NCBI GenBank assembly: GCA_951406725.2
Contig: OX597833.1
Location: 4,712,001 to 4,776,000 of the forward strand
From: Octopus vulgaris
Taxonomy: Eukaryota
Direction of reading: 5' to 3'
Length of the DNA stretch: 64,000 nucleotides
How positions within the stretch are numbered: position 1 is the first letter of the stretch; each line of letters begins with the position of its first letter. The notes beneath the pieces were generated by a model. That model saw only the letters and a list, made by a program, of their open reading frames with translations, ran no database searches and was not told the origin of the DNA. Below, in pieces: positions 12,901 through 63,747 of this stretch. The position numbers and the translations under genes are program-made.

Positions 12901-14033
12901 CTGCAAGTGAGAGGAGGAAAGAGTAGAGAGAGAGAGAGAAATGTAGAGAAAATAATGAGTGGAGTGGAGTAAGTAGGTGGAGTGGAGTGGAATGGATTGA
13001 GTGGAGGTGATTGGTGAAGAAGGGAAATGTGAGAAAGTCGAGGAAAACATTGAGTGTGAATAACAAGATGGGAAACTGGAACGAAACTGGAGAACCAGGT
13101 TTAGAGTAAACCAGGATGTACGATCCAGCTGCTGGCTCTGTGGTACAAATGTCTTGTTTTCATAAGTTCTGAATTAAAATCTTCCACCAAACCTTAGTCA
13201 CAATTTATGTTCCTAACACTTGCTTAATGATAACGAAATTTTTTTACTAAATTCTTTGTTATATTTGAAATCAATTGAAAGAAACACAGCATCTTAACAG
13301 AAATATGGTAACAAAAGGGTTAAAATATATAATAGAGAAACAATTCCTAATCCTTTTGATACCAACCTGGCTGAAACTGCCTCTGACTCTGAGTACAAAT
13401 GTCTTGTTTTCATAAGTTCTGAATTAAAATCTTCCACCAAACCTTAGTCACAATTTATGTTCCTAAAACTAGCTTAATGATAACGAAGTTATTTTACTAA
13501 ATTCTTTGTTATATTTAAAATTAATTGAAAGAAACACAGAGTATCTCAATGGAAATATGGTAACAAAAGGGTTAAGAAAGTTAAAGACACTTTGGATACT
13601 GTGGTCCTAAATACAGGGTCTGTCTTGAAATAAGACATGATGGTCACCAGGGCCAGCGCTAGTAAGTGTGGGGCCCAATTAGATAATTGTCAATGGGGTC
13701 CTCTACTCTACAAAAACTGAAGATCGATGTTTTATGCTTTGTGCAGTACACCAGTCCTAACCAAAAGGTGTTGAGGGTTTGAGGTTCCACCATTAGCCAC
13801 AATGAAATAATAGAAAGTCATCATGGTGTCCTCTGCTCAAGTGTCTGTGTGGGGCCCAATTTGAACATGTCCATCTAATTGGCTTAAAATTAACCCTGAT
13901 GGTCACTGCTAGACAATCTTTAATCTTAAGCCTATTGAATAAGGACTGACCTGAGCTAAACAAGAGAACAAATGCAAAGGAAAGATAGAGAGAGAAAGAG
14001 AAGAGGTAAAGACAGAAAGGGAGAGAGGTGGAG

Positions 14034-16423: not shown

Positions 16424-18426
16424 CTAAAACAAGAACATACAGTAATAGTAGTAGTAGTAGTAGTAGTAGTAGTAGCAGTGAAGGAGGAGGAGGAGGAAGA
16501 GGGGGACATAAGTGGTGCGAGACATACATCATCATCATCGTTTAACGTCCGCTTTCCATGCTGGCATGGGTTGGACGGCTTGGCTGGAACCGGTAAACTG
16601 GAGAGCTGCCCCAGTGTTGGTCATGTAGATATTTACCAATTTTCATCTATCCACCTACCTATCCACCTATCTATCCACCTACCTATCCACCTACCTATCA
16701 TCATCATCGTTTAACGTCCGTTCTCCATGCTAGCATGGGTTGGACGGTTTAACCGGGGATCTGGGAAGCCAGAAGGCTGCACCAGGCTCCAATCTTGATC
16801 TGGCAGTGTTTCTACAGCTGGATGCCCTCCCTAATCACTACAATAGACGTCAAATATTGCAAAGCCATGCTCTGGATTGGATAACACTCTAAATACATCC
16901 TATGACTTTGATGTGTAGAAGAAAAAAGGGCAGGGTGGCGTCCCCTTACAAATCATTTCCAGATTTGTTGAACCCTCACCAGAGAAGCAGTAGTACCCAG
17001 CTCCCTTCTTTTACCAACAGCATAGAACATTCACCATATATAGAAAGTTATCCTAAGTTAAGCTAGCACCGTAGTGGATAGTCTAATTTGCATATTTCTG
17101 CATTAGATAACTCATCTTTAACTAAATACATTTTACGCACACACACGTGGAAGTTATTATCAGGGATAATGTTATCAAAAACTTAAAGGCATCAAAAACA
17201 GTGGGTCCTCCCAAGCATCCTTAGAATACTGTTATACTGGCCTTAATGTTATCAGCCAGTTATTGTTATCTAAATAGCTTCCTGTGGAACCTGGGCTGAG
17301 TATACCACAGACGCCACTTCTACATTTAATATTACACACAAGCAGAATCAGGAAGATAGTGTGCGACCGTGACAAGGCTGGACCTTTGGAATCATGGATA
17401 TAATCCATCCAACAGGCTTCTGTACAGTTTCCAACTGCCCGGTTTTATTTACAAGGCTGGTATTGGCCCAAGGGTGCTGGTGAAGATCCTTGTGTGTGAT
17501 GCCATGATATGGGACTAGACATGACACATCATGGTTGCTTGAGTAATTAAGAAGTTTCTTTAGTAACTCTGTGTGTATTCTTTTGTTTTTTTACTTGTTT
17601 TAGTCATTTGACTGCAGCCAAGCTGGAGCACTGCCTTTAGTTGAACAAACTGACCCCAGGACTTATTCTTTGTAAACCTAATACTTATTCTATTGGTCTC
17701 TTTTGCCGAACTGCTAAGTTACAGGGACATAAGCACACTAACATTGGTTGTCAAGCAATGGAGAGAGGACAAACACAGACACACACAAATATATACATAT
17801 GTATATATACGATGGGCTTCTTTCAGTTTCCGTCTACCAAATCAACTCACAAGGCTTTGGTCGTCCCGAGGCTATAGTAGAAGACACTTGCCTAAGTAGC
17901 CATACAGTGGGACTGAACCCAGAACCATGTGGCTGGGAAGCAGGCTCCTTACCACACAGCCCCTCCTACACCTATAAATATATATATAATTGAAAAAAAT
18001 TGGAGTCAACAAGAAGGGGTACGGTTGGACATTTAGTTCTAATCCCTACAATTGTTTCCATGCAGCATAGTCCTCCAGATATGCAGGGAATTGATCAGGC
18101 AACCGCTACCCTGCATTATGAGATCTGAACCTACGGAAACAATATTTACATATCACCTGAGGAAACACTATTAGATTTAATAATGCAGGGAAACAGTTGC
18201 ATAATCAAGAACCTGCATGCCTGGAGAACTACGTTGAGTGGAAACAATTGTAGTGACTAAAAAATAAATGTCCAACCACTCCAATTTTTTTCAATTACCT
18301 ATTCACACATGACAGAAGCCCAAATGCAAACCTGGAAGTATACATAATACCACAACTGGATAGTATAGGGTAAATCTGAAGGTGGATGAACTCTATACTG
18401 TACTATGTTCTTAACACAACATACCA

Positions 18427-18463
<37 letters not shown>

Positions 18464-18693
18464 GTTGCAGTGTGGAAGGTGTTTATAAGCCATTTAAGAA
18501 ACGCACAAAAACCGTTAGATTCACTTCAACATTTAAATTTAATTTGTCAAAATATTTTCGTCAAATATTTTAAGTGAATCTAACGGTTTTTGTGTGTTTC
18601 TTAAATGGCTTATAAATATCTTCCACACTGCAATTGTTTTCGTTCCAGCACGCGATCTCAGATCAGGTCACTTGCTATGCAAGTACATCTCTG

Positions 18694-18738
<45 letters not shown>

Positions 18739-18842
18739 CCGGAGTAAACACATAAATGTGAAACAAGATGGAAAAAAGAGTACTCAAATACCAGTGGTAG
18801 AGTAATATGCTTTATTTAAAGCAGCAGAAAATTCAACAAAAC

Positions 18843-18880
18843 CTGTTACTCTGAGTTTCACGTTGCCGTTCGTCAGACAG
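18843..18880 (-). ncRNA. Minimal type-I hammerhead ribozyme motif (sense to WASP pre-mRNA)
   Basis: ctgt-CTGACGA-acg(gcaa)cgt-GAAA-ctcagag-TA-acag; compensatory stem II change relative to the plus-strand partner. Confidence 0.8.
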
Positions 18881-18893
18881 TTTCTAGCAAAAA

Positions 18894-18931
18894 CTGTCTG
18901 ACGAATGGGAACATGAAACTCAGAGTAACAG
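18894..18931 (+). ncRNA. Minimal type-I hammerhead ribozyme motif
   Basis: ctgt-CTGACGA-atg(ggaa)cat-GAAA-ctcagag-TA-acag; intact core, GNRA-capped stem II, GUA triplet. Confidence 0.8.
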
Positions 18932-20339
18932 GTTTTGTTGAATTTTCTGCTGCTTTAAATAAAGTATATATATATATATAAAGGTGTTATTATTATACCA
19001 CTTCCTCTTGTATATTGTTTATCATAAATGTTGACACCAATCTCCCAGACGATATATATATGTGTGTATATGCATGCAGATAGTGTATAGTTTAAACACT
19101 ATCTCTATATCCTTCAGACTGGCTGATTTGATTTCGCTTCACAAGTGACACAAATACCTGACATTGATAAGCCACAGCAATGGGCAAAATATGCATCTGT
19201 TGCTCAGGGAGTCACTTCTGGGGGGCGATTTTGTTTCGCACAAGTCTGAAGCACGCTGTGTTCTTTATTAACACAATATGTTTTTTAAAGGTATTTTCCC
19301 TAAACAAAAACTGCAGCCTCTGGCTTTTTAACAACATATATAAATGTTATATTGATAACATTTCTACTAGAGAGTTGCTTTCAATGCATTATTCAAACAC
19401 ACACATACATAAATATCAACAGTTTCTGGGCTGAGCTAGATTAGGGACTAAAGGCGAAACATAACTGATGATTGTTGGTGTCCCTTTTATCAAATGTGTG
19501 GATATATGTTTATGTATATAAATATATATACACAAATATACACACACACAGTTAAAAGAAAATGGAGATATGGCAGTTAATAATTATTATTAACAAATTA
19601 GAAGCAACCATCCCTTTACGAGGTTAACATATTCTCTAATTAAATTTATATATATATGTATATATGTGTATGTATATATATATAAACAAATACACACACA
19701 CACACACACACAGAGTTAAAAGAAGAAAATGGGGATATGGCAGTTAATTATTATTATTATTAACAAATTAGAAGCAACCATCCCTTTACGAGGTTAACAT
19801 ATTCTCTAATTAAATTTATATATATATACACTACCTAGAATGTAGACAGTAAAGTATACACACTGTGACAAGTGTATTATACTACAGAGAGGGTACAATA
19901 TATCTCAAATGACAGCCAAGGAAATGTTTAGTGACATAACATACATACAGACATGTAGGCCACTACACACATCCACTAAACATACACATCCACACAGATT
20001 ATACATGGTGACATTACACACACACACACACATGCACAGATATCTCTCTCACTCACACACATACACAAATAATGAAACAATATTGATTTTTTTCCAAATG
20101 GTATTTCGTACAAAATCTACATGTAGGATGGTTTTACTAACATAGACACATGGACTGAGCCATGGAGACAGAGGAAGGAAGAGAGACAAAGCAAAACACA
20201 TGAGGACATGGAGGTACAGGTAGATGTAATTAACACTGAATCATGGAGACACAGACGTCCTCTAAAGTACACACATAGAGACAGCAGAAGTACTCCAAGG
20301 CACAAATAGACATCATGTAATGTAAATTAATACATACAG

Positions 20340-32329: not shown

Positions 32330-32582
32330 TATAATACAAATAAGAATATGGAGAAACAAATTTGGTTTGTTCATCAACTTATGGATATTATAATGTTGGA
32401 TTATTTAGTCATTTTATAAAATGAGAACATCAAAAGCATACAAAAATATTATATTGATTTATATAATATTTTGTATGCTTTTGATGTTCTCATTTGTAAA
32501 GTGAATAAATAATCCAACATTATAATATCTGAAAGTTAATGAGCAAACCAAATTTGTTTCTCCATTTTCTTCTTTGTATTAT
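32330..32582. repeat. AT-rich imperfect palindrome (foldback element)
   Basis: ggagaaacaaatttggtttg ... caaaccaaatttgtttctcc, arms about 120 bp. Confidence 0.8.
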
Positions 32583-32733
32583 AAATTTTACGGTAAAAAT
32601 ATTTCTTTACCTTCACCCGTTTAATACAATAAATGACTTAATTGCATTGCAATTAAAAACATTTATGTATTAAGAATTTGAGTACTTTACCAACAGTATA
32701 TTAGATAAATGATATCCCATATCTTACTTTGTA

Positions 32734-33792: not shown

Positions 33793-34244
33793 CGACGGGC
33801 TTCTTTCAGTTTCCGTCTACCAAATCCACTCACAAGGCTTTGGTTGGCCCGAGGCTATAGTAGAAGACACTTGTCCAAGGTGCCATGCAGTGGGACTGAA
33901 CCCGGAACTATGTGGTTGGTAAGCAAGCTATTTACCACACAGCCACTCCTACATTGTCAAGTTTTTCTACAGTTGTCTGTCTGTATGTCCCTATTTCTCT
34001 CACTCCATGTCTCTACGGACAATACAAAACAGAATATACAAACAGTAAAATAAAAAAAAAAAGATTAGAAGCAGTGGCATGATTATGTGGTTAAGAAGCT
34101 CATTGTGCAATCATATGGTCTCAGGTTCAGTCCCACTGCATGGTACCTTGCACAAGTGTCTTCTAATATGATCCTGGCCCAATCAATGCCTTATGAGTGA
34201 ATTTGGTAGATGGAAAGAATAGAAACCTGTCACATATCTCTATC

Positions 34245-36943: not shown

Positions 36944-38893
36944 TTGGTGATATACCATGATGTGTTGACCTGTCAAACCAAGTGAGACCGTAGTCATGGT
37001 TGATATAAGTGTCAGGTCAATGGCACGTAAAAAACGTCCACTACACTCTTGGAGTGGTTGGTGTTAGGAAGGGCATCCAGCTGTAGAAACCATGCCAAAA
37101 CAGATTGGAACCTGGTGCAGCTCTCCGTCTTACCAGTCTTCAGTCAAACTGTCCAACCTATGCCAGCATGGTAAAGTGGATGTATGATGATGATGATGTA
37201 ATTAAAACTGAAGGAGAAAACTGGATTTCGAGAATCAAGTGGTAACCATGGGAGACACTCCAGCTGAAGAATTAGCGATCAAGTGACACAGAAATTAAAT
37301 TACAATGTAATTTAATTTGATTATGGAATTGAAAATCTAGGTGAGGCCGTGTGGAAAGAAGTCTACTTCCCAACCACATGGTTCTGGGTTCAGCTCCACT
37401 GTGTGGAACCTTTGGTATGTTCTACTATGGCCCCGGGCCAACCAGGACCTTGTGAATGGGTTTAGTAGATGACAGAAACTGAAAGAAGCTCTTCATCTAC
37501 ACTCTTTTATCCTTTTACTGGTTTCATTCATTTGACCATGGCCATGCTGGGGCACCACCTTGAAGGGTTTTAGTCAAACAAATCGACTCCAGGATTTATT
37601 TTCAAGCCTTACACTTATTCTATCAGTCTCTTTCATTGAACCGCTAGGTCACAGGGATGTAAATACACCAGCACCAGTTGTCAAGTGGCGATGGGGGACA
37701 AACACAGACACAAAGAAACCCAAATACATACATACTCTTTTACTTGTTTCAGTCATTTGGACTGTGGCCATGCTGGAGCACCGCCTTTAGTCGAGCAAAT
37801 CGACCCCGGGACTTATTCTTTTTGTAAGCCCAGTACTTATTCTATCGGTCTCTTTGCCGAACCGCTATGTGACGGGGACATAAACACACCAGCATCGGTT
37901 GTCAAGCAATGCTAGGGGGACAAACGCAGACACACAAACACACCCCCACACACACACATATATATATGTCTACCAAATCCACTCACAAGGCATTGGTTGG
38001 CCCGGGGCTACAGCAGAAGACACTTGCCCAAGGTGCCACGCAGTAGGACTGAACCCAGAACCATGTGGTTGGTTAGCAAGCTACTTACCACACAGCCACT
38101 CCTGCACCTATACATGTGTATATATATATATAAAATGATGATGATGATGATGATTGTTTTAAAGTTTAGGAGACCCTGCCATTTGCTTTCTTTTCTTTAC
38201 TTTCAGACGAAGAGTAAGAACAGGAAATGGCGAAACTTTTTTTATTCTGTTGGCATTGGATCCCCATGCTAGTAGGGTGTTAAGAGCACCATCCAAGCGT
38301 GATCATTGCCAGAGCGGCTATCTGGCCTCCATGCTGGTGGCACATAAAAGGCACCATTCGTGCGTGATCGTTACCAGCATCGCCTTACTGGCACCTGTGC
38401 CGGTGGCATGTGTAAAAAGATTCGAGTGGGGTCGTTGCCAGTGCTGCCTGATTGGCCCCGTGCCGGTGGCACGTAAAAGCACCCACTACACTCTCGGAGT
38501 GGTTGGCGTTAGGAAGGGCATCCAGCTGTAGAAACTCTGCCAGATCAAGTTTGGAGCCTGGTGCAGCAGTCTGGTTTGCCAGCCCCCAGTCATTCATCCA
38601 ACCCATGCTAGCATGGAAAGCGGACATTAAATGATGATGATGACATTCTTCATTACTTTCAAATTAAGTAAAACGAAGGCAGTGGAGAAAATTACTATTT
38701 TTAAATCTCACATCAAGAGATATTCAGTAACAGTACTTTGTAGTAAAGATTGTTTGCCAACATAACATGGCAGTCCTGGTTTAGGATGAATGTTGCTGTA
38801 ATTTAACTCCAGGAGACATCATCTCCCACTGGCTATATGACATAATCTGTGTCCTTATATTTTCGAACAAGGGAATCTAGCACCCCCACTCAT

Positions 38894-38938
38894 TCTGTGC
38901 TGATGAAGGGAAATAACCCAGAAATCGCGATACACAGA
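38894..38938 (+). ncRNA. Hammerhead-like motif in the loop of a foldback element
   Basis: tctgtg-CTGATGA-aggg(aaataa)ccca-GAAA-tcgcga-TA-cacaga; 6-bp stem I, palindromic stem III, A.A mismatch at the base of stem II. Confidence 0.6.
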
Positions 38939-39289
38939 TATTGTTTTGAGCTGAGTGGGGGTGCTAGATTCCCTTGTTCGAAAATATAAGGACATAGATC
39001 GTGTCGTATAGCTATCGGGAGATGATGTCTCCTGGGGCTAAATTACAGTAATATTCGTATTAAACCAGGACTGCCATGTTATGTTGGCAAATAATCTTTA
39101 CTACGAAAGCAGTGCATTTCAACAGAAATATAGTAACAAAAGGATTAATTTCATTTAATATGTGTGCGTGTGTGTAATTAAAAAGTATTCGTTAACTATA
39201 AATTTGATAATAGAGGAAGAGCAGAGCTTATGAACCCTTCACCCCTACCTGTAAAATTGAAGAGGGTCAAGTTCAGTTTGAATGTCAGC

Positions 39290-39690
39290 TGGTCAACGTT
39301 TGGTAGACAACATGAGCAAGTGAGATTCCAGAGGGTTGCAGTAGTTCTGGGGAGAAAGGACTGGGTAATGTTATTTTGGTGTGGGATGCAGGAGGTGAGG
39401 CCCAGTGACATTGATGAGAGATGCTGTGTGTATGTAGGGGCCACATGTCCAAGTAATTCTGGGAAGCAAAGCACATTGTAGTGATAGACAAATGCAGAGA
39501 GAGAGGAGAAATAGCATGGCTGTGAAGCTGAGAATGTAGAAATTAGACCCTTGCCAACCAGTTGAAGATGCCTTCTTTTAGATGTAGTTTCAGATGTGTA
39601 AGGCGATATAGATTGATGGAGTGGATAAATGAGCCTCTTAACTCTGGTCTGAGACCAGACACAGCTGAAGGCCATTCAACCGTTTACCAA
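39290..39690 (-). mobile_element. Degenerate CR1/L2-group LINE 3' fragment
   Basis: QSFLPRTTATLWN motif in the ORF track, frameshifted. Confidence 0.5.
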
Positions 39691-40449
39691 AGATTCACAC
39701 ATCTGCCCTTAACCCTTTTAGCATTCAGATTATTGTCAAGCGTTTTGAATTAATCTTGGATTATCTTGTAACTTTGGTATTTCAAAATGATTGTTTTATT
39801 TTCGGAATGACATTACAGGGTAGGTGTGAGAGGCTGGATCTGGTTGGTTTGAACACAAAACAAATAAAATATTTAGGCTGGATGCGACCAGTTTCAATGT
39901 CAACGAGTTAAACTGCTCCTAGAGTCACCTCTGTTCTTCTGTGCTAGTAATCTGCTTTTTGAGCAACTGTTTGGAGATTTGAGCAACTGCACGAACGGAT
40001 CCCAACAAAGCATACTTAGAATTAGAGAATCAACCAGCCCCTATAACACAATAAACACCAATTCTAGAAATACATAAAACCATCATCATATTTATTCAAA
40101 CTGAACTTGACCCTTTTCAATTTTACAGGTGGAGGTGAAGGGTTGCTGAAGGGTTCATAAGCTCTGCTCTTCCTCTATTATCAAATTTATAGCTAACAAA
40201 TACTTTTTAATTACTCACACGCACACATATTAAATGAAATTAATCCTTGTGTTACTATATTTCTGTTGAAATGCACTGCCTTCATAGTAAAGATTGTTTG
40301 CCAACATAACAAGGTAGTCCTGGTTTAGGCCAAATGTTACTGTAATTTAGCCCCAGGAGACATTGCCTCCAGCTGGCTATACGACACGATCTCTGTCCTT
40401 ATATTTTCGAACAAGGGAATCTAGCACCCCAACTCAGCTCGAAACAATA

Positions 40450-40494
40450 TCTGTGTATCACAATTTCTGGGTTATTTCCCTTCATCAGCACAGA
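40450..40494 (-). ncRNA. Hammerhead-like motif (inverted copy of 38894-38938)
   Basis: tctgtg-CTGATGA-aggg(aaataa)ccca-GAAA-ttgtga-TA-cacaga on the minus strand. Confidence 0.55.
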
Positions 40495-41289
40495 ATGAGT
40501 GGGGGTGCTAGATTCCCTTGTTCGAAAATATAAGGACATATTGCTACAAAAAAATAACCATTATATAATATCCATAAAAATAAAGCAAAAAACAAACTCA
40601 AACAAAGATCTCCAAATCTTTTCATGAGAGACAAGAAAGCCTAAAGACACATTTCCAAACAGATCTAATTCTATGGAATCCACATCAACAACCAGGAGAG
40701 AAAGAGAGAGAGAGCTACTGAAGGTGATGCAGGAGATTTAGGATTACTGTTATCGCCTTCCAAATGTTGGGAATGAAAGCAACAAGAGAATCAGGAATTG
40801 GCTGGATTATACAGACGAAGGATGCTACTTGTACCAGGAAGTGATTAGATGCTATTATGACAAGTGCTGTTATTCCTGGTTAAAAGATGTGGTTTACTCT
40901 TTGCTTTTTTGTTTTTTCCCACTGAAATTTTGTTCATATCTTTTTTTATGAAGTTCTCTCAAAGTCAAGTGTAATGGCATTGGCCTGTTTTTACACAACA
41001 TATTAAATGTAATGTGAGTTAGGTGGTATGGGAAAAACAAGTCAGAAAAAACCCCCAGAAAAGATACTCTTTCACACACACACATTATGATACTAACCAT
41101 GTGTGCATGTACATACGCACGCACACACACACATATATATATCATCATCATCATCATCATCGTTTAACGTCCGTTCTCCATGCTAGCATGGGTTGGATGG
41201 TTCGACCAGGGTCTGGGAAGCCAGGGCTGCACCAGGCTCCAGTCTGATCTGGCAGTGTTTCTACAGATGGATGGCCTTCCTAACACCAA

Positions 41290-41333
<44 letters not shown>

Positions 41334-42198
41334 CCATATGTACACATATACATACACATATGTACACATATATGCATTTATATATATGTGTGTGTGTGTG
41401 TGTATACATATACACACATTTGAAAGAATATCAGTAATAACAATATGAGCAATATTTCAAAACCTTCGTTCCTACAGCTGTTTCAATAACTCATTACATA
41501 ATATTAAAGATGGTCCTACTAATCCTACTTATAGCACACAAGATCACATTTTCTTGTGGGGGGGGGGCTTTTTCAATGATGAATTACCGATTTCAAATCA
41601 GCTATTATGTAGGTTGAAGATTCAAGGAGAAAATAAAATGAAAAAAAAAAAGAGAAAATAAAATAAAGGAATATTGAGATGAAAAATAGGAAGAAAGCCT
41701 GAAGGTGGAAGAAGATGGCAGAAGACACTCTTTTACTCAATTCAGTCATTTGACTGCAGCCATGCTGGAGCACCGCCTTTAGTCGAGCAAATCGACTCCA
41801 GGACTTATTCTTTGTAAGCCTAGTTCTTATTCTATCAGTCTCTTTTGCCGAACCGCTAAGTTATGGGGACGTAATCACACCAGCATCGGTTGTCAAGAGA
41901 TGTTGGGAGGACAAACACACATATATATTCATATATACGACAGGCTTCTTTCAGTTTCCGTCTACCAAATCTACTCACAAGGCTTTGGTCGGCCCGAGGC
42001 TATAGTAGAAGACACTTGCCCCTGGAAAATGGCTCAACATGGAAGAAGATATTACAAGAAAACATGAAGAAAGAGGAAGATGATGAAGATGAGGTATAAA
42101 GGACTTTGTGAACATATTTAAAAAAAACAAAAAAACAGACAACAAAGTATGATGCTGGTGAGTGTAATTAATAGAAGCATTCCTGGTTCCGCTCTTAC

Positions 42199-43503
42199 CT
42201 CATCCATGGCATACACTTGTGCAAGGGACTTTAAATAATCAATCAGAATGGGATCAACCTCGTAATATGATTGATGGTCTTCATTCTCCATATTGGAATC
42301 CTCGGTTCCATAATAATTACCATTGTCCAAAGAGCTGTTGTAATTATGGTAATTATTATTCTCCTCAAAAGCTCCCATAGAGTCTGGGTTTGTTTGGTAA
42401 GATTCGTAGCCGAGGGCCGAGCTGTGGTGGTGGCCACCAGTGGTGTTAGGACCGAACCCTTCATACTGACCATACCCTTGAGATTTCCCATTGTATGCAT
42501 CTGTTTTGCTGGATTCCTGATAAGCACCGGTCATTTTATAGGGGTCGTATTTGTTATGGGAAGGGCTCGCTAGGTAGATAGCCTTGCTCCACATTTCACG
42601 AGGATTAAAATTCCTATCGGATATTTTTGTGGTTGAAGCCGTTTGGTGGTGATGGTCATGGTGATCAGAATGTTGGGGGTCCTGATGGTGATGGTCGTGG
42701 TGGCTTGGCTGATAAACAGAATTGGTTGAGTCATAAGAATTATGTCCATTGTACAATGCAATATTTCTATAGTAACTCCGAGCATGCTCAAGAGCCTTTG
42801 ACCATCGGTCTTGAGGTTTCGCCGTGTCATATTGGACCGACTGATTGTATTCGTTATTATTATGATACACCGTACCATTGTGGTAAGAATGGTTAGATTC
42901 CAAATGGTACTGAGAATTTTCATATTCAGAAGAAATATGGTTAGAATGGTTAGTCATATTACTGGAATTCTCTTTCTGGTAACCATTAGACATTTTGTCT
43001 TGATAAAACCGGTCATTCTGTGAATGTTTGGCTCCGTATGTCTGGGAGTGAGAGTCATATGGTACTTGGACGTCTCTAGATGTTTGTCTGTAAACAGTCT
43101 GGTCAAAAGATTGCTGGGTATTAAACTTCTTTGAACTGGACAACTGACTGTGTGTGTAGTGAGTGGAGGTGTGATAGGGCTGTTGGTCAGAAGTCTGTTG
43201 GAAGTTAACTTGGTCAATGGAATTATTCTGACCGTAAGAATACACAGGTTCAGCATGTTTGTAAGTGTGATGTTGTGTGCTATAGTCGGACTGAGAACTG
43301 GAATGGTGTCCATTGTATTGATATTCTTGGATAGGAGACAAAGTCTGGTTTTCGTGTGCCTGTTGTTGTGGTTGGGACGTCCAATGGGTACCATAATCTA
43401 AGTATTCTTCCGATGGATCTTTCTCGCACAAACCGTACGGATCATACTTCCTGTTTCCATTGAACGGTCTGTATGAGTAACGGTACGGTTTGGTCGCCGC
43501 CAT
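42199..43503 (-). CDS. Putative alternative first coding exon of N-WASP (or nested gene): 435-aa Y/H/Q/N/S/D-rich low-complexity domain
   Basis: Longest ORF in the window and not microsatellite-derived. In-frame TAA lies directly before the ATG. Composition changes abruptly at GAG|gtaaga (42199), a phase-0 donor compatible with the exon starting at 36089. Confidence 0.75.
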
Positions 43504-50735: not shown

Positions 50736-52218
50736 ACAATAAATTTTCTATGGCCCATGCAAGAAAAAGGAAACTAAACATTAAAGCCATGATGAAAATA
50801 ATGCTGATGATGATGATGTGTGTGAGTGTTAAGGAGTTTTCTTTCAAACAGTGTGCCATGTAGTGGCACTTTAGACAAGTGTCTTCCACTTCTGCTAAAG
50901 CCTTGGGCTGACCAACACTCTGGGAGAGCTTGGTTGATGGAAACTGTGTCGAAGCCATTTCAGTTGTTCACTTAAAGTTTTCAATGTTAAAACAGGTTGG
51001 CTGGAACTTATCTGAAGAAAGAATTTGTATTTGGATGCTCTTGCTGCTGCCAACCCTTAGCTATTTTCCAAGTGACGTGTGTGTGTGTGTATGTACGTTC
51101 ACATTTATGTATGTTTATATGTGCATATGTTAGTACATGTCTGTTTCTATGTATCATCATCATCATCGTTTAACGTCCGCTTTCCATGCTGGCATGGGTT
51201 GGACGATTTGACTGAGGCCTGGTGAACCAGATGGCTGCACATGGCTCCAATCTTGATCTGGCAGAGTTTCTACACCTGGATGCCCTTCCTAATGCCAACC
51301 ACTCCGAGAGTGTAGTGGGTGCTTTTAAAGTGCCACCGCAAAAGCACCAACTACATTCTCGGAGTGGTTGGCATTAGGAAGGGCATCCAGCTGTAGAAAC
51401 TAAAAAAAAAAAAAAACCATCAGTGACCGAAAGCATATCCTTGGAACTAAGTACTGTAATAAATATAAATTACTAAAAATAACCAACAGGCTGACAAAAT
51501 AAAATATTGGTATTGATAAGATTAAAAAGGGAAAGGAAAAAAAACCTGTCTATGGTGTTCTAGGATGGACTAAAGACAAATGATTGAAATGAAAGCAAAC
51601 TTTAAACAAAATGCGTGTGCATGGATACATGTGTATGCACACACATCGATTAATGACTGACCAAGGAACAAGAGTTACGTAATCCTGTTCAATAGCTCAC
51701 AGTTGTTTCTGCTGTAAGCAGCATTGCACTCATAGTTGAGTGCTTGCGTAACATCTTATAGCTCTGCCAAAACCATTTCAGTAAACCATCACCACCATCA
51801 TTTAACATCTGTTTTCCATGCTAGCATGGGTTGGACAGTTTGACAGGAGCTGTCCAGGTTCCAATGGTGAGTGTTGTCATGGTTTCTACAGCTGGATACC
51901 ATTCCTAATGCCAACCACTTTACAGAGTGCACTGGGTGCTGTTTACACGGCACCAGCACAGGTGACTTTTACGAGGTGCTGGTATGTATGTTTGTTGCAG
52001 AAAGCATTTAAATCTGTGGAGTTGATTACATACAGAACCATGAATTAAATCTGATAGAGTCGGAGGTGAAAAAAACCCCATATTAATTGATAATAAACTC
52101 TGCTTTAAAGCAGAATTATATTAAGTTCTAACTACTGGTCAATAGAATGGTTATACCTAGGAGGGATCATAAAGTATGGACACACATGATATGAAAATTA
52201 AATGCCAGAGAAACCAAC

Positions 52219-59900: not shown

Positions 59901-60822
59901 AGCACAGAAAAGTGGACATTAACTCTTTTGTTACCAACTTGGCTGAAACCGCCTCTGGCTCTGAGTACAAATGTCTTGTTTTCATAAGTTCCAAATTAAA
60001 ATCTTCCACCAAACCTTAGTCACAATTTATGTTCCTAACACTAGCTGAATGATAACGAAGTTATTTTACTAAATTCTTTGTTATATTTAAAATTAATTGG
60101 AAGAAACACAGAGCATCTTAAAATATGGTAACAAAGGGGTTAAAATATATAATAAGAAAAACCAACCCTTTTGATAACAATGGCTTAAAAGAATGATGAT
60201 GAAGATAGATTATTTGGAATTGCCTGATAACATCATCATAATGCTAAAATGAATGTTAATTTTCAAAAGAAAAAATATTTTTTACTTTAAAATGTTTTCA
60301 TTATTTAATCAAAAATATTAATGTTTGGGTGATTTCCAAATGTAAAGGTTAATAAACTAATTCATAAGTGCAACACAGATAAATCTACAGTTCTTTAGTT
60401 GAAAACCTTAACCATGATGATTGCAGATGATGTGAAGACATCCTATTGCTCTCTGGAGTAAATAGGAAAAAATAACTGGGAATCCTTTTAGAGACCTGAT
60501 AGGGGTGATTCTTCCCTCCTCTGATAAAATGAACCTTTATTCTTGGATTACCCAGTGAACTATTAGCTTAAATTTCTATAATGGCAGCTGGAAATGAGTA
60601 TTAGTGACAGACTGGCAATCCATACGGTGGGGAATAGTGTACCCACAATCATTTACATACCATGAAAAATGGACAAGCTCCAGCCCAATCAGCATTTTGG
60701 TAGGTGCAGGGTAGACATAATACCTAAGGGCTTAGTACTTAATTTTTGCAAGAGTGGTTAGATATTGTATCAAAGAGTAGAACAAAATTCTGAGAAATAG
60801 GAATGGAGAAATTACCATTGTA

Positions 60823-61306
60823 TTAACCCTTTCATTACCAACCCTGCTGGAACCGGCTCTGGCTCTGTAGTATTGTAGTCTTGTTTTCATAAGTTCTGAA
60901 TTAAAATCTTCCACCAAACCTTAGTCACAATTTATGTTCCTAACACTAGCTGAATGATAACTAAGTTATTTTACTAAATTCTTTGTTATATTTAAAGTGA
61001 ATTGAAAGAAACACAGAGCATCTCGACAGAAATACGGTAACAAAAGGATTAAAATATATAATAGAGAAACGATTCTTAACCCTTTTCTTACCAACCCTGC
61101 TGATACCGGCTCTGGCTCTGTAGTACAAATGTCTTGTTTTCAAAAGTTCTGAATCAAAATCTTCCACCAAACCTTAAGTCACAATTTATGTTCCTAACAC
61201 TAGCTGAATGATAACTAAGTTATTTTACTAAATTCTTTGTTATATTTAAAATTAATTGAAAGAAACACAGAGCATCTCAACAGAAATATGGTAACAAAAG
61301 GGTTAA
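60823..61306. mobile_element. Two tandem piggyBac-type MITEs (other copies at 13130-13575 and 59919-60142)
   Basis: About 225-bp units bounded by TTAA|CCCTTT ... AAAGGG|TTAA. Confidence 0.75.
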
Positions 61307-61603
61307 TGCCTATGTGGTGAAATACAGTGGTTGTTAGGGATAAAAGTGATTACCATGGGGCACACTAGTTACTATGGGACCCATCAGTTAGTGTGGGGTA
61401 TATTTGGTTAGCATGTCACTATAAAGTGACAATCACAGGGCACTATGTCAATGAACAAATTGGTTAACCCTTTTAATACCAACCTGCCTGAAACTGCCCC
61501 TTGTTCTATGATATGGACAGCTTGTTAAAGTAATCTAGCTGGCTATACGACACGATCTGGGTCCTTATATTTTCAAACAAGGGAATCTAGCACCCCCACT
61601 CAT

Positions 61604-61648
61604 TCTGTGCTGATGAAGGGAAATAACCCAGAAATTGCGATACACAGA
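61604..61648 (+). ncRNA. Hammerhead-like motif, third copy of the 38894 family
   Basis: tctgtg-CTGATGA-aggg(aaataa)ccca-GAAA-ttgcga-TA-cacaga inside a foldback copy at about 61537-61812. Confidence 0.55.
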
Positions 61649-63539
61649 TATTGTTTTGAGCTGAGTGGGGGTGCTATATTTCCTTGTTCGAAAATATAAG
61701 GACACAGATAAAGTCGCAGAGCCAGCTGGAGACGATGTTTCCTGGGGCTAAATTACAGCAACATTCGTCCTAAACCGGGACTGCCATGTTATGTTGGCAA
61801 ACAATCTTTACTCCATAATGAATTTGTATAACTCAGACAGCACAGTTAAACTGCGAGTAGGGGGCTTTTAGAGTGAACTGGGTCCACAACAGTGTAAGAA
61901 ACTAATATTGGTTCCAGACTTTGGCTCCAGACTAAAGTCTATCTTTTTGCCTCTCTACTTACCTATATAATCTGGCTCTCATCATCATCATCATTTAACG
62001 TCTGTTTTCCATGCTGGCATGGGTCAGATGGTTTGACAGGAGGTGACCAACTAAAGGGCTGCTCAGGCCTCATCCCCGTTTTGGCATGGTTTTATGGCTG
62101 CCCTTCCTCACGCCAGAGTGACACTGGTTGCTTTTACACAGCACAAGCACAGGTGCTTTTTATGTGGCACCAGCACTTACCGACCTGCAAGAAAGCTGGC
62201 ATGGGTCAGATGAGTATACTGAGGGAAGACTTTTCTACAACCATAGGCCCTTCCTGATACCATCCTCCCACCTGTTTCCAGGTGAGTTAATAATCTCCCA
62301 GATTATCAAAGAACAAACACCAGAGTCACGGTTATTTGAAGAACTTGAAACTAATAATACCGACAGAGGGAGCCTTTCGTTTATAAAGTCCAAGCAGCAT
62401 TTTTTAAAGCTTGGACATGCTGTTGCGATGGAGCTGCAAGGAAGCAAAACTGTTTGTGAGGTCACAGCTTACAACTTGTGACCATATATGAAGGTGAGAA
62501 GAAATGCACACTCACTCACACAAACACATGTGCACATACTTTATACGCACTTTCTGACAAGTTGTGGTGCACCTGAGCACTGTATACAATAATTTCATTA
62601 TTATTATACTATATACGCGCACACACAAACATATGCATACCATGGGTATGTGAACTTCTGTGCAAATGATACTGGCTGTGTAGTAAGATGCTTGCTTTGA
62701 ATCACAAGGTTCTGGGTTCAGTCCCACAGCATGGCACCTCGGGCAAGTGTCTTCTATTATAACCACGGGCCGACCAAAGCCTTGTGAGTGAATTTGGTAG
62801 ACGGACATTGAAACAAAGCCCATTGTAAGTATGAATGTATGTGTGTGTGTGTGTGTGTGTGCATCCCATCACTGCTTAACACTTGGTGTTGGTGTGTTTA
62901 CATCCTTGTAACTTAGCAGTTCAGAAAAAGAGACTGATGGAATTAGTACTAAGTCTTAAAAAATAAATCCTGAGGTTGACTTGTTTGACTAAAACCCTGA
63001 AAGGCGGTGCTCCAGCATGGCCACAGTCAAGGAATAAGGGTGGGTATATCAATAGATACATACACATACATTTTTTTATTCGTTTCAGTCATTTGACTGC
63101 GGCCATGCTGGAGCACTGCCTTTAGTCAAACAAATCTACCCCAGGACTTATTCTTTGCTGAACTAAGTTACGGGGACATAAACACACCAGCATCAATTGT
63201 GAAGTGATGTTGGGGGGACAAACACAGACACACATATATATATACGATGGGCTTCTTTCAGTTCCTGTCTACCAGATCCACTCACAAGGCTTTGCTCAAC
63301 CTGAGGCTATAGAAGACACTTGCCCAAATGCCACACAGTGGGACTGAACCCAGAACCATGTGGTCGGTAAGCAAGCTACTTACCACACAGCCACTCCTCC
63401 GCCTATACATACATACATATATATATTTATTAATAATTAAGGGTACTACAAGCAGTACCAGCATGCTAAAATAGCAGTCAAAATGACTCAGACCACAAGT
63501 TTTCACTTAAACACAAAAGTGAAGGTCGGTAGATGAGCC

Positions 63540-63742
63540 AAATCCTTAAGACTCTGTACCAACGACAAAAATAATCGGAAATTGGAAAAGTCAGACATAC
63601 CTGTATCACTGTGATTTCAAACTTTGACAAAATACCATTAGTTCATCCCAAGAGTATTGTGTCCAAGTTTGAAATCACAGTGATACAGGTATGTCTGACT
63701 TTTTCAACTATTTTTGTCATTGGTATGGAGTCTTAAGGATTT
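63540..63742. repeat. Imperfect palindrome (foldback/MITE)
   Basis: aaatccttaagactc...tcactgtgatttcaaactt and aagtttgaaatcacagtga...gagtcttaaggattt. Confidence 0.8.
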
Positions 63743-63747
63743 GTCAA

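Follow-up and report, generated by a model that had tools for sequence, protein, structure and literature searches.

The window analyzed here, a 64,000-nt stretch of Octopus vulgaris DNA (contig OX597833.1, positions 4,712,001 to 4,776,000), holds three copies of a repeat with a predicted hammerhead ribozyme. Copies 1 and 2 are flanked by exons of a WASP gene on the minus strand (52359-52219 and 36089-36003), so that copy 2, itself on the minus strand, is sense to WASP, as a first-pass annotation of the sequence had stated. Copy 1 forms a foldback in which arms of 156 nt (38737-38892 and 38952-39107; 90% complementary) enclose a loop of 59 nt, and its predicted folding energy (-273.5 kcal/mol, z -33) was equaled by 0 of 100 shuffles. 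Type I hammerhead cores were detected in three places, 38894-38938 (plus), 40450-40494 (minus) and 61604-61648 (plus), each with a helix I of 6 bp, a helix II of three G-C pairs beneath an A.A apposition, and a U16.1-A17 pair. A strict hammerhead scan gave three matches in the window and none in each of 200 block shuffles, while an Rfam search of the window and of a 131-nt stretch found no match to a hammerhead model and only generic hairpins below gathering scores. These results bear out the annotated foldback with a hammerhead in its loop, and its arms are indeed unrelated to a foldback near 18.8 kb, with which they have only chance words of 7-11 nt in common. Arms of about 150 bp, ascribed to all three copies, were found in copy 1; those of copies 2 and 3 are just 43 and 69 nt. 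The features of the three copies are as follows.

38673-38684, plus: left target site duplication (12 nt), followed by 1 extra base at 38685
38686-38741, minus: optional 3' tail of 52-56 nt, in the inverted copy only, placed from contig depth and ends
38742-38892, minus: inverted 5'-truncated body copy (left arm), head-to-head, 136/151 identical to the right arm
38894-38938, plus: type I hammerhead of copy 1, from core scans and folding; activity is a prediction only
38894-38899/38933-38938, plus: helix I of the copy-1 hammerhead
38900-38906, plus: CUGAUGA of the copy-1 hammerhead, with A at 38907
38908-38910/38917-38919, plus: helix II of the copy-1 hammerhead, with A at 38920
38921-38924, plus: GAAA of the copy-1 hammerhead
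38924-38931, plus: palindrome (helix III) of the copy-1 hammerhead; predicted cut after 38932
38939-38951, plus: 3' strand of distal helix I left without a partner, the opposite strand having been lost at the inversion junction
38952-39102, plus: forward body (right arm), ending at the short 3' end of the family
39103-39114, plus: right target site duplication; its first 2 nt could equally belong to the element
40094-40538, minus: copy 2, most readily understood as 38850-39283 duplicated locally in inverted orientation (445 columns, 91% identical); left arm 43 nt, hammerhead at 40450-40494, body reaching 40286, flank in common with copy 1 over about 180 nt
61534-61812, plus: copy 3, a separate insertion with its own flanks; left arm 69 nt, hammerhead 61604-61648

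The edges of copy 1 were defined from the flanking DNA and from other members of the family. The sequence at 38673-38684 matched both 39103-39114 and its equivalent at copy 2 with 1 mismatch in 12. Since the host repeat is present uninterrupted at 25.4 kb and there contains the matching stretch once, in register, the 12-nt repeat represents duplicated target sequence. The stretch 38686-38741, unmatched on the right-hand side, accordingly falls within the insert, and the element extends leftward to 38686, beyond the left limit first assigned to it. The family was surveyed by aligning four of 24 listed sequencing runs (X1, X7, X15 and X24) to 38640-38975; an insect run with a small share (X20) was left out. 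DNA contigs aligned numbered 6,347 (X1) and 6,434 (X7), where depth sums do not equal copy number, and in several related species the family accounted for thousands of contigs in each run. Summed contig depth was 59-365 left of 38676 against 55,405 (X1) and 158,141 (X7) at 38688-38699, and 112 (X1) and 102 (X7) contigs diverged at 38686 into dissimilar flanks (agreement 0.43-0.44). This jump in depth and these contig ends place the tail piece within the family. A second class of ends fell at 38737-38742 (56 + 76 contigs in X1, 39 + 49 in X7), and the end of the right arm at 39102 mirrors the class at 38742 (76 and 49 contigs, respectively).

Other repeats were seen around these copies. A repeat of about 230 nt, partly tandem, at 60823-61306, 13122-13575 and 59918-60159, is related to the repeat into which copy 1 inserted. 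A very abundant SINE-like repeat with an ATG-repeat end lies beside copy 1 (38263-38643) and in about 20 other places; two of its copies form an inverted pair at 51265-51401.

At position 38892, 81 (X1) and 79 (X7) contigs and 84 RNA reads passed into another, common 5' sequence, with an agreement of 0.6 (X1), 0.66 (X7) and 0.9 (RNA). By inspection of the 30 letters seen in three runs, the end of its consensus is complementary to 38940-38946. Judged by this complementarity, the other 5' sequence would supply the strand of distal helix I that the inversion removed. The canonical type I form (6-bp helix I, loop 1 and distal helix) was recognized by inspection in this parent and was absent from the three foldback copies. 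The upstream motif of the parent had one match in the window at 2 mismatches, and 33 of 100 shuffles did as well. A joint table of 143 rows placed junctions at many positions among the 15 rows listed; the joint tables carry no count of contigs with copy 1's own junction. The earlier view that the family is designed as a ribozyme in a hairpin does not survive the common 5' sequence at 38892 and the many other junctions: the hairpin is the insertion layout of copy 1, not the design of the family. The core itself was kept in DNA, with A6 changed in 0.15% of depth and A17 in less than 1%.

The relationship among the copies reduces the number of insertions. About 180 nt of 3' flank are common to copies 1 and 2 (174 identities, 7 mismatches and 11 gap columns), and copy 2 is therefore best read as having arisen from copy 1 through local inverted duplication, which leaves two independent insertions among the three copies. 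Copy 3 has a junction and a 3' end identical to those of copy 1 and no tail, and a search of its ends for a target duplication found none. The 3' end falls on the same base in all three copies. The junction of copies 1 and 3 is alike to the base even though their flanks differ, so the whole foldback may have been copied again in one piece. An extended form of this idea, in which the exact-junction foldback is a mobile sub-family whose hairpin RNA, with its hammerhead loop, is re-copied from the 3' end and 5'-truncated in the left arm, we consider quite unlikely. It would account for the agreement of copies 1 and 3 in junction and 3' end, for left arms of 151 nt plus tail, 43 nt and 69 nt, and for the equal distances among the three copies (190-191/210 identities for each pair). 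However, the independent copies number only two and lie 23 kb apart, a pattern to which gene conversion, or a hot spot for junctions, could equally lead, and the survey revealed many other junctions among the rows listed. Such a sub-family can be compatible with the explanation favored below.

The first-pass annotation had regarded the A.A apposition at the base of helix II as a family trait that might need an A-to-U repair. Two independent copies stood behind that claim. In the survey, position 11.1 (38920) was G in 53% (X1), 45% (X7), 66% (X15) and 73% (X24) of depth, and no row with U there was found among the 40 of 110 listed. With G at 45-73%, the trait is A.purine, of which A.A is one form. 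A search with the A.purine pattern returned 97 loci, five of which (four distinct) had a helix I of at least 5 bp and a helix III of at least 3 bp, whereas 500 shuffles averaged 0.086 and never exceeded 2; the pattern was selected for the mismatch, so that 5/97 shows recurrence in nature and not frequency. A U.U mismatch at the base of helix II has been found in active hammerheads (excerpt of PMC3088659), and the axolotl hammerhead HHR_Amex2, with U.U at this place, still cleaves (excerpt of PMC7229834). As mismatches there are known in active hammerheads and recur in unrelated ones, the A.A would by analogy not be a lesion awaiting repair.

Well-formed type I hammerheads with A.A at the helix II base were also observed on metagenome contigs (L065 2977-3050, L071, L077, L053 and L064). 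They lie mostly between prokaryote-like genes, and that of L064 has a palindromic helix III.

Helix III of copy 1 is a perfect 8-nt palindrome with a predicted self-duplex energy of -10.1 kcal/mol. Through C-to-T changes this duplex is weakened in copy 3 (-5.9 kcal/mol) and lost in copy 2 (+1.2 kcal/mol). The loose-end consensus of X1 (agreement 0.71) has a second palindrome in which C-G replaces U-A. In the monomer, the pairing probability of helix III was 0.0 in all three copies. Palindromic helices III occur in PLE and retrozyme hammerheads (excerpt of PMC4209133), and dimer-type hammerheads have been reviewed (excerpt of PMC6765202). From these folding models we infer that the ribozyme is of the dimer type, in which two copies would pair through the 8-nt palindrome as helix III. 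Because the distal helix I strand has been lost, the foldback ribozyme is probably weak or silent. RNA was sampled from about 6% of one run, in which 2,097 reads aligned in both orientations, 173 of them at least 95% alike; no pile-up of read starts or ends was seen at the predicted cut site, or at any other position, in this sample, from a cDNA library that may hide such ends. The annotated proposal that cleavage opens the loop of a long dsRNA is thus not borne out: helix III is predicted to be unpaired in the monomer, the foldback has lost the 5' strand of distal helix I, and RNA ends did not pile up in the run sampled.

One hint of cleavage came from the junctions themselves. Twenty-three distinct joints were listed, of which 12 were counted, those with their second side in 38894-38955; six opposite-strand joints, four at 38892-3 and one deletion in the arm were dropped. 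Five of the 12 fell at 38932-38935 (p = 0.0006 for that window, p = 0.025 for any 4-nt window), and this is a lead only, because the kind of joint is unstated for three, two may reflect 3-nt microhomology, and the rows listed are a minority. It is possible, though we hold it unlikely, that the foldback is a master copy spread as a unit, with a self-complementary rod RNA that has the hammerhead as its loop, that would be cut only when two meet as a dimer through the palindrome, and whose cleavage would also set the 5' ends of many copies of the family in vivo. If true, this would be genomic evidence of hammerhead cutting during transposition, an open question for PLEs.

Two further observations concern the RNA reads. 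Core-breaking changes (38903 and 38932-38934) were present in 35-39% of RNA reads (X24) against less than 1-1.2% in DNA, and could mean either one expressed dead copy or the survival of uncleavable RNAs; as one expressed locus could explain them, they were set aside as evidence. RNA editing was likewise considered and is not claimed: A>G and T>C made up 55 of 106 changed places in RNA and 13 of 30 in DNA (p = 0.54), and the RNA-only excess of 42/62 is near the 61% A+T content, in RNA and DNA that were not matched.

The position of copies 1 and 2 in the WASP intron has its own consequences. In the predicted minus-strand intron fold, copy 2 pairs with the antisense copy 1 over 371 + 43 bp. Such insertions yield long intronic dsRNA, a likely editing substrate. 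The predicted burial of copy 2 in this duplex also speaks against cleavage opening the copy-2 loop, as had been supposed. That the host has adopted the hammerhead as a switch in the WASP intron, cleavage opening a long dsRNA, seems scarcely credible. Copy 2 does lie sense within the intron, and variable columns were fewer in the loop (3/59) than in the arm (26/151; p = 0.025), but the CpG content of the arm can explain that difference, the palindrome of copy 2 is lost (+1.2 kcal/mol) and the copy is predicted to pair with the antisense copy 1, and none of the 173 of 2,097 RNA reads that were at least 95% alike could be tied to the window locus.

Two open frames were noted in the same region. 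A 461-aa frame at 42118-43503 (minus), rich in Q, H, Y, S and N, has no Pfam match and is sense in the WASP interval; it is possibly a long alternative exon or a nested gene. A 159-aa frame at 39199-39675 (minus), also with no Pfam match, has its 3' part within the inverted duplication, and its end presumably resembles the C-terminus of a CR1/L2-type LINE ORF2.

Collectively, these data are probably best explained by a short, non-coding, high-copy retroelement of the PLE pseudo-LTR/non-LTR retrozyme group that is mobilized in trans by the reverse transcriptase-endonuclease of a PLE. The Penelope pseudo-LTR lead of the first-pass annotation was well placed. Copy 1 combines three PLE hallmarks, namely a 5'-truncated copy in inverted orientation, a one-sided tail and a target duplication of 12 nt. 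PLE insertions typically pair such a truncated, inverted copy with a tail at one end and a duplication of 8-10 bp (excerpts of PMC3846280 and PMC8557442), and the PLE-type features found here are a palindromic helix III, a head-to-head truncated copy, a variable junction, an optional tail and, in copy 1, a short duplication of the target. The parent unit would consist of the 5' sequence, the type I hammerhead, a body of about 165 nt and the optional tail of 52-56 nt. The partner enzyme, putatively a PLE RT-endonuclease, would nick the target, and cDNA synthesis would begin at either of two internal positions, so that the tail is included or left out, by extension from the two internal RT start sites that account for the optional PLE tail in vitro (PMC11167929). 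A second, 5'-truncated copy would then be placed head-to-head beside the first to give the foldback, a process suggested by the anatomy observed. In copy 1 the forward copy happens to begin immediately upstream of helix I, which leaves a loop made up almost entirely of ribozyme. Repair would leave a target duplication, observed at 10-12 nt, and the copies would afterward decay neutrally, with the CpG loss observed in the palindrome.

The three copies have no open frame in common, and the element was thus classed as non-coding. No RT or GIY-YIG Pfam match was found in the 100 of 192 window ORFs scanned, and the element does not qualify as an autonomous PLE. In a search for relatives, the hammerhead pattern matched 1 viral and 96 metagenome loci, none of which resembled the arms, and an exact arm 20-mer had 0 matches both in prokaryote genomes and in viral contigs. 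Several findings stand against the PLE reading: the tail of 52-56 nt is longer than the 30-40 bp reported; the 6-bp helix I with a distal helix suits the canonical retrozyme type more than the minimal PLE type; the junctions of copies 1 and 3 are identical, unlike a de novo inversion at each insertion; and copy 3 has no duplication that was found, nor is an autonomous partner tied to the element.

Some of these features would suit a tandem non-LTR retrozyme making circular RNA, of which the window would hold dispersed, rearranged monomers. Such retrozymes likewise have a canonical type I hammerhead with a distal helix I (excerpt of PMC7229834), the unit is non-coding and at least about 300 nt long, inside the 150-450 bp range, and one joint row, of unstated kind, links the end at 38737 to the hammerhead start at 38892 via 37 other letters. 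However, no tandem copies were found in the window, the tail end exits into unlike flanks (agreement 0.43-0.44) with no common next monomer, and RNA ends did not pile up in the run sampled (about 6%). We therefore regard this reading, which puts rolling-circle RNA at the center, as unlikely; it overlaps the PLE explanation, since non-LTR retrozymes have themselves been argued to be PLE derivatives (excerpt of bioRxiv 10.64898/2026.07.22.740005).

Long near-perfect inverted arms and a target duplication are also what a DNA-transposon MITE or foldback element would present, its hammerhead-like loop having arisen by chance. This is highly improbable: the motif appeared in 0/200 shuffles, the ends are asymmetric (one-sided tail), the arms and junctions are variable, and the motif also occurs without a left arm. 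Symmetric fixed termini and internal structure were not found, and the contig data largely refute the MITE reading, which the first-pass annotation had itself named as a threat to its proposal.

Other foldbacks were observed in the window. One at 18805-18969 has arms of 79 nt, a loop of 7 nt and a hammerhead core in each arm (18898, plus; 18876, minus), with A-U at the helix II base and a sequence unrelated to copy 1; from its sequence it appears to be a second inverted insertion of PLE type. Six more lie at 32330-32583, 33810-34216, 18037-18262, 18458-18640, 63538-63744 and 62753-63316, and a loose scan found no convincing hammerhead core in them.

No description of this hammerhead family was found in the openly accessible literature searched, and the supplementary figures of hammerhead papers may list similar mollusc motifs. 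In the Octopus vulgaris genome, 190 PLE families occupy 6.83% of the sequence, according to an account whose accessible text does not mention ribozymes (excerpt of PMC13282606), and the family may well be present in the PLE library of that work. The family would be new; its layout is already known for Penelope-type elements, so that the finding is mostly ordinary. Its value is as a test bed, since each run offers thousands of contigs in which to compare the positions of 5' junctions with the predicted cut site. What PLE hammerheads do is described as unclear (excerpts of PMC8557442 and PMC7761336), and no RNA ends were found at the hammerhead site of PAc (PMC11167929).

Among known systems, the octopus element resembles the insertions of EN+ PLEs (Penelope/Poseidon and Neptune; Pen2a_Av of Adineta vaga, excerpt of PMC3846280; PAc of Anolis, PMC11167929) in its inverted, 5'-truncated head-to-head copy, its optional tail at one end, its short target duplication and its type I hammerhead with a palindromic helix III. 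It differs in having no RT-GIY-YIG ORF and no ORF start in its body or tail, in a tail of 52-56 nt against 30-40, and in having no parent linked to it. With metazoan non-LTR retrozymes (excerpts of PMC7229834 and bioRxiv 10.64898/2026.07.22.740005) it has in common that it is short, non-coding and high-copy and carries a canonical type I hammerhead. Those retrozymes, proposed to be derivatives of PLE pLTRs and often present as solo monomers (same excerpts), are tandem, whereas the octopus element is dispersed and inverted; the mismatch at the helix II base is U.U in axolotl HHR_Amex2 but A.A or A.G in octopus. Pairs of opposite-strand hammerheads in Schistosoma mansoni PLEs (excerpt of PMC4209133) provide the likeness of hammerheads in inverted, truncated PLE ends, a layout that fits the 18.8-kb foldback and the pair formed by copies 1 and 2. 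In contrast to that layout, the inverted part of copy 1 stops short of the core, so that a single hammerhead remains, in the loop.
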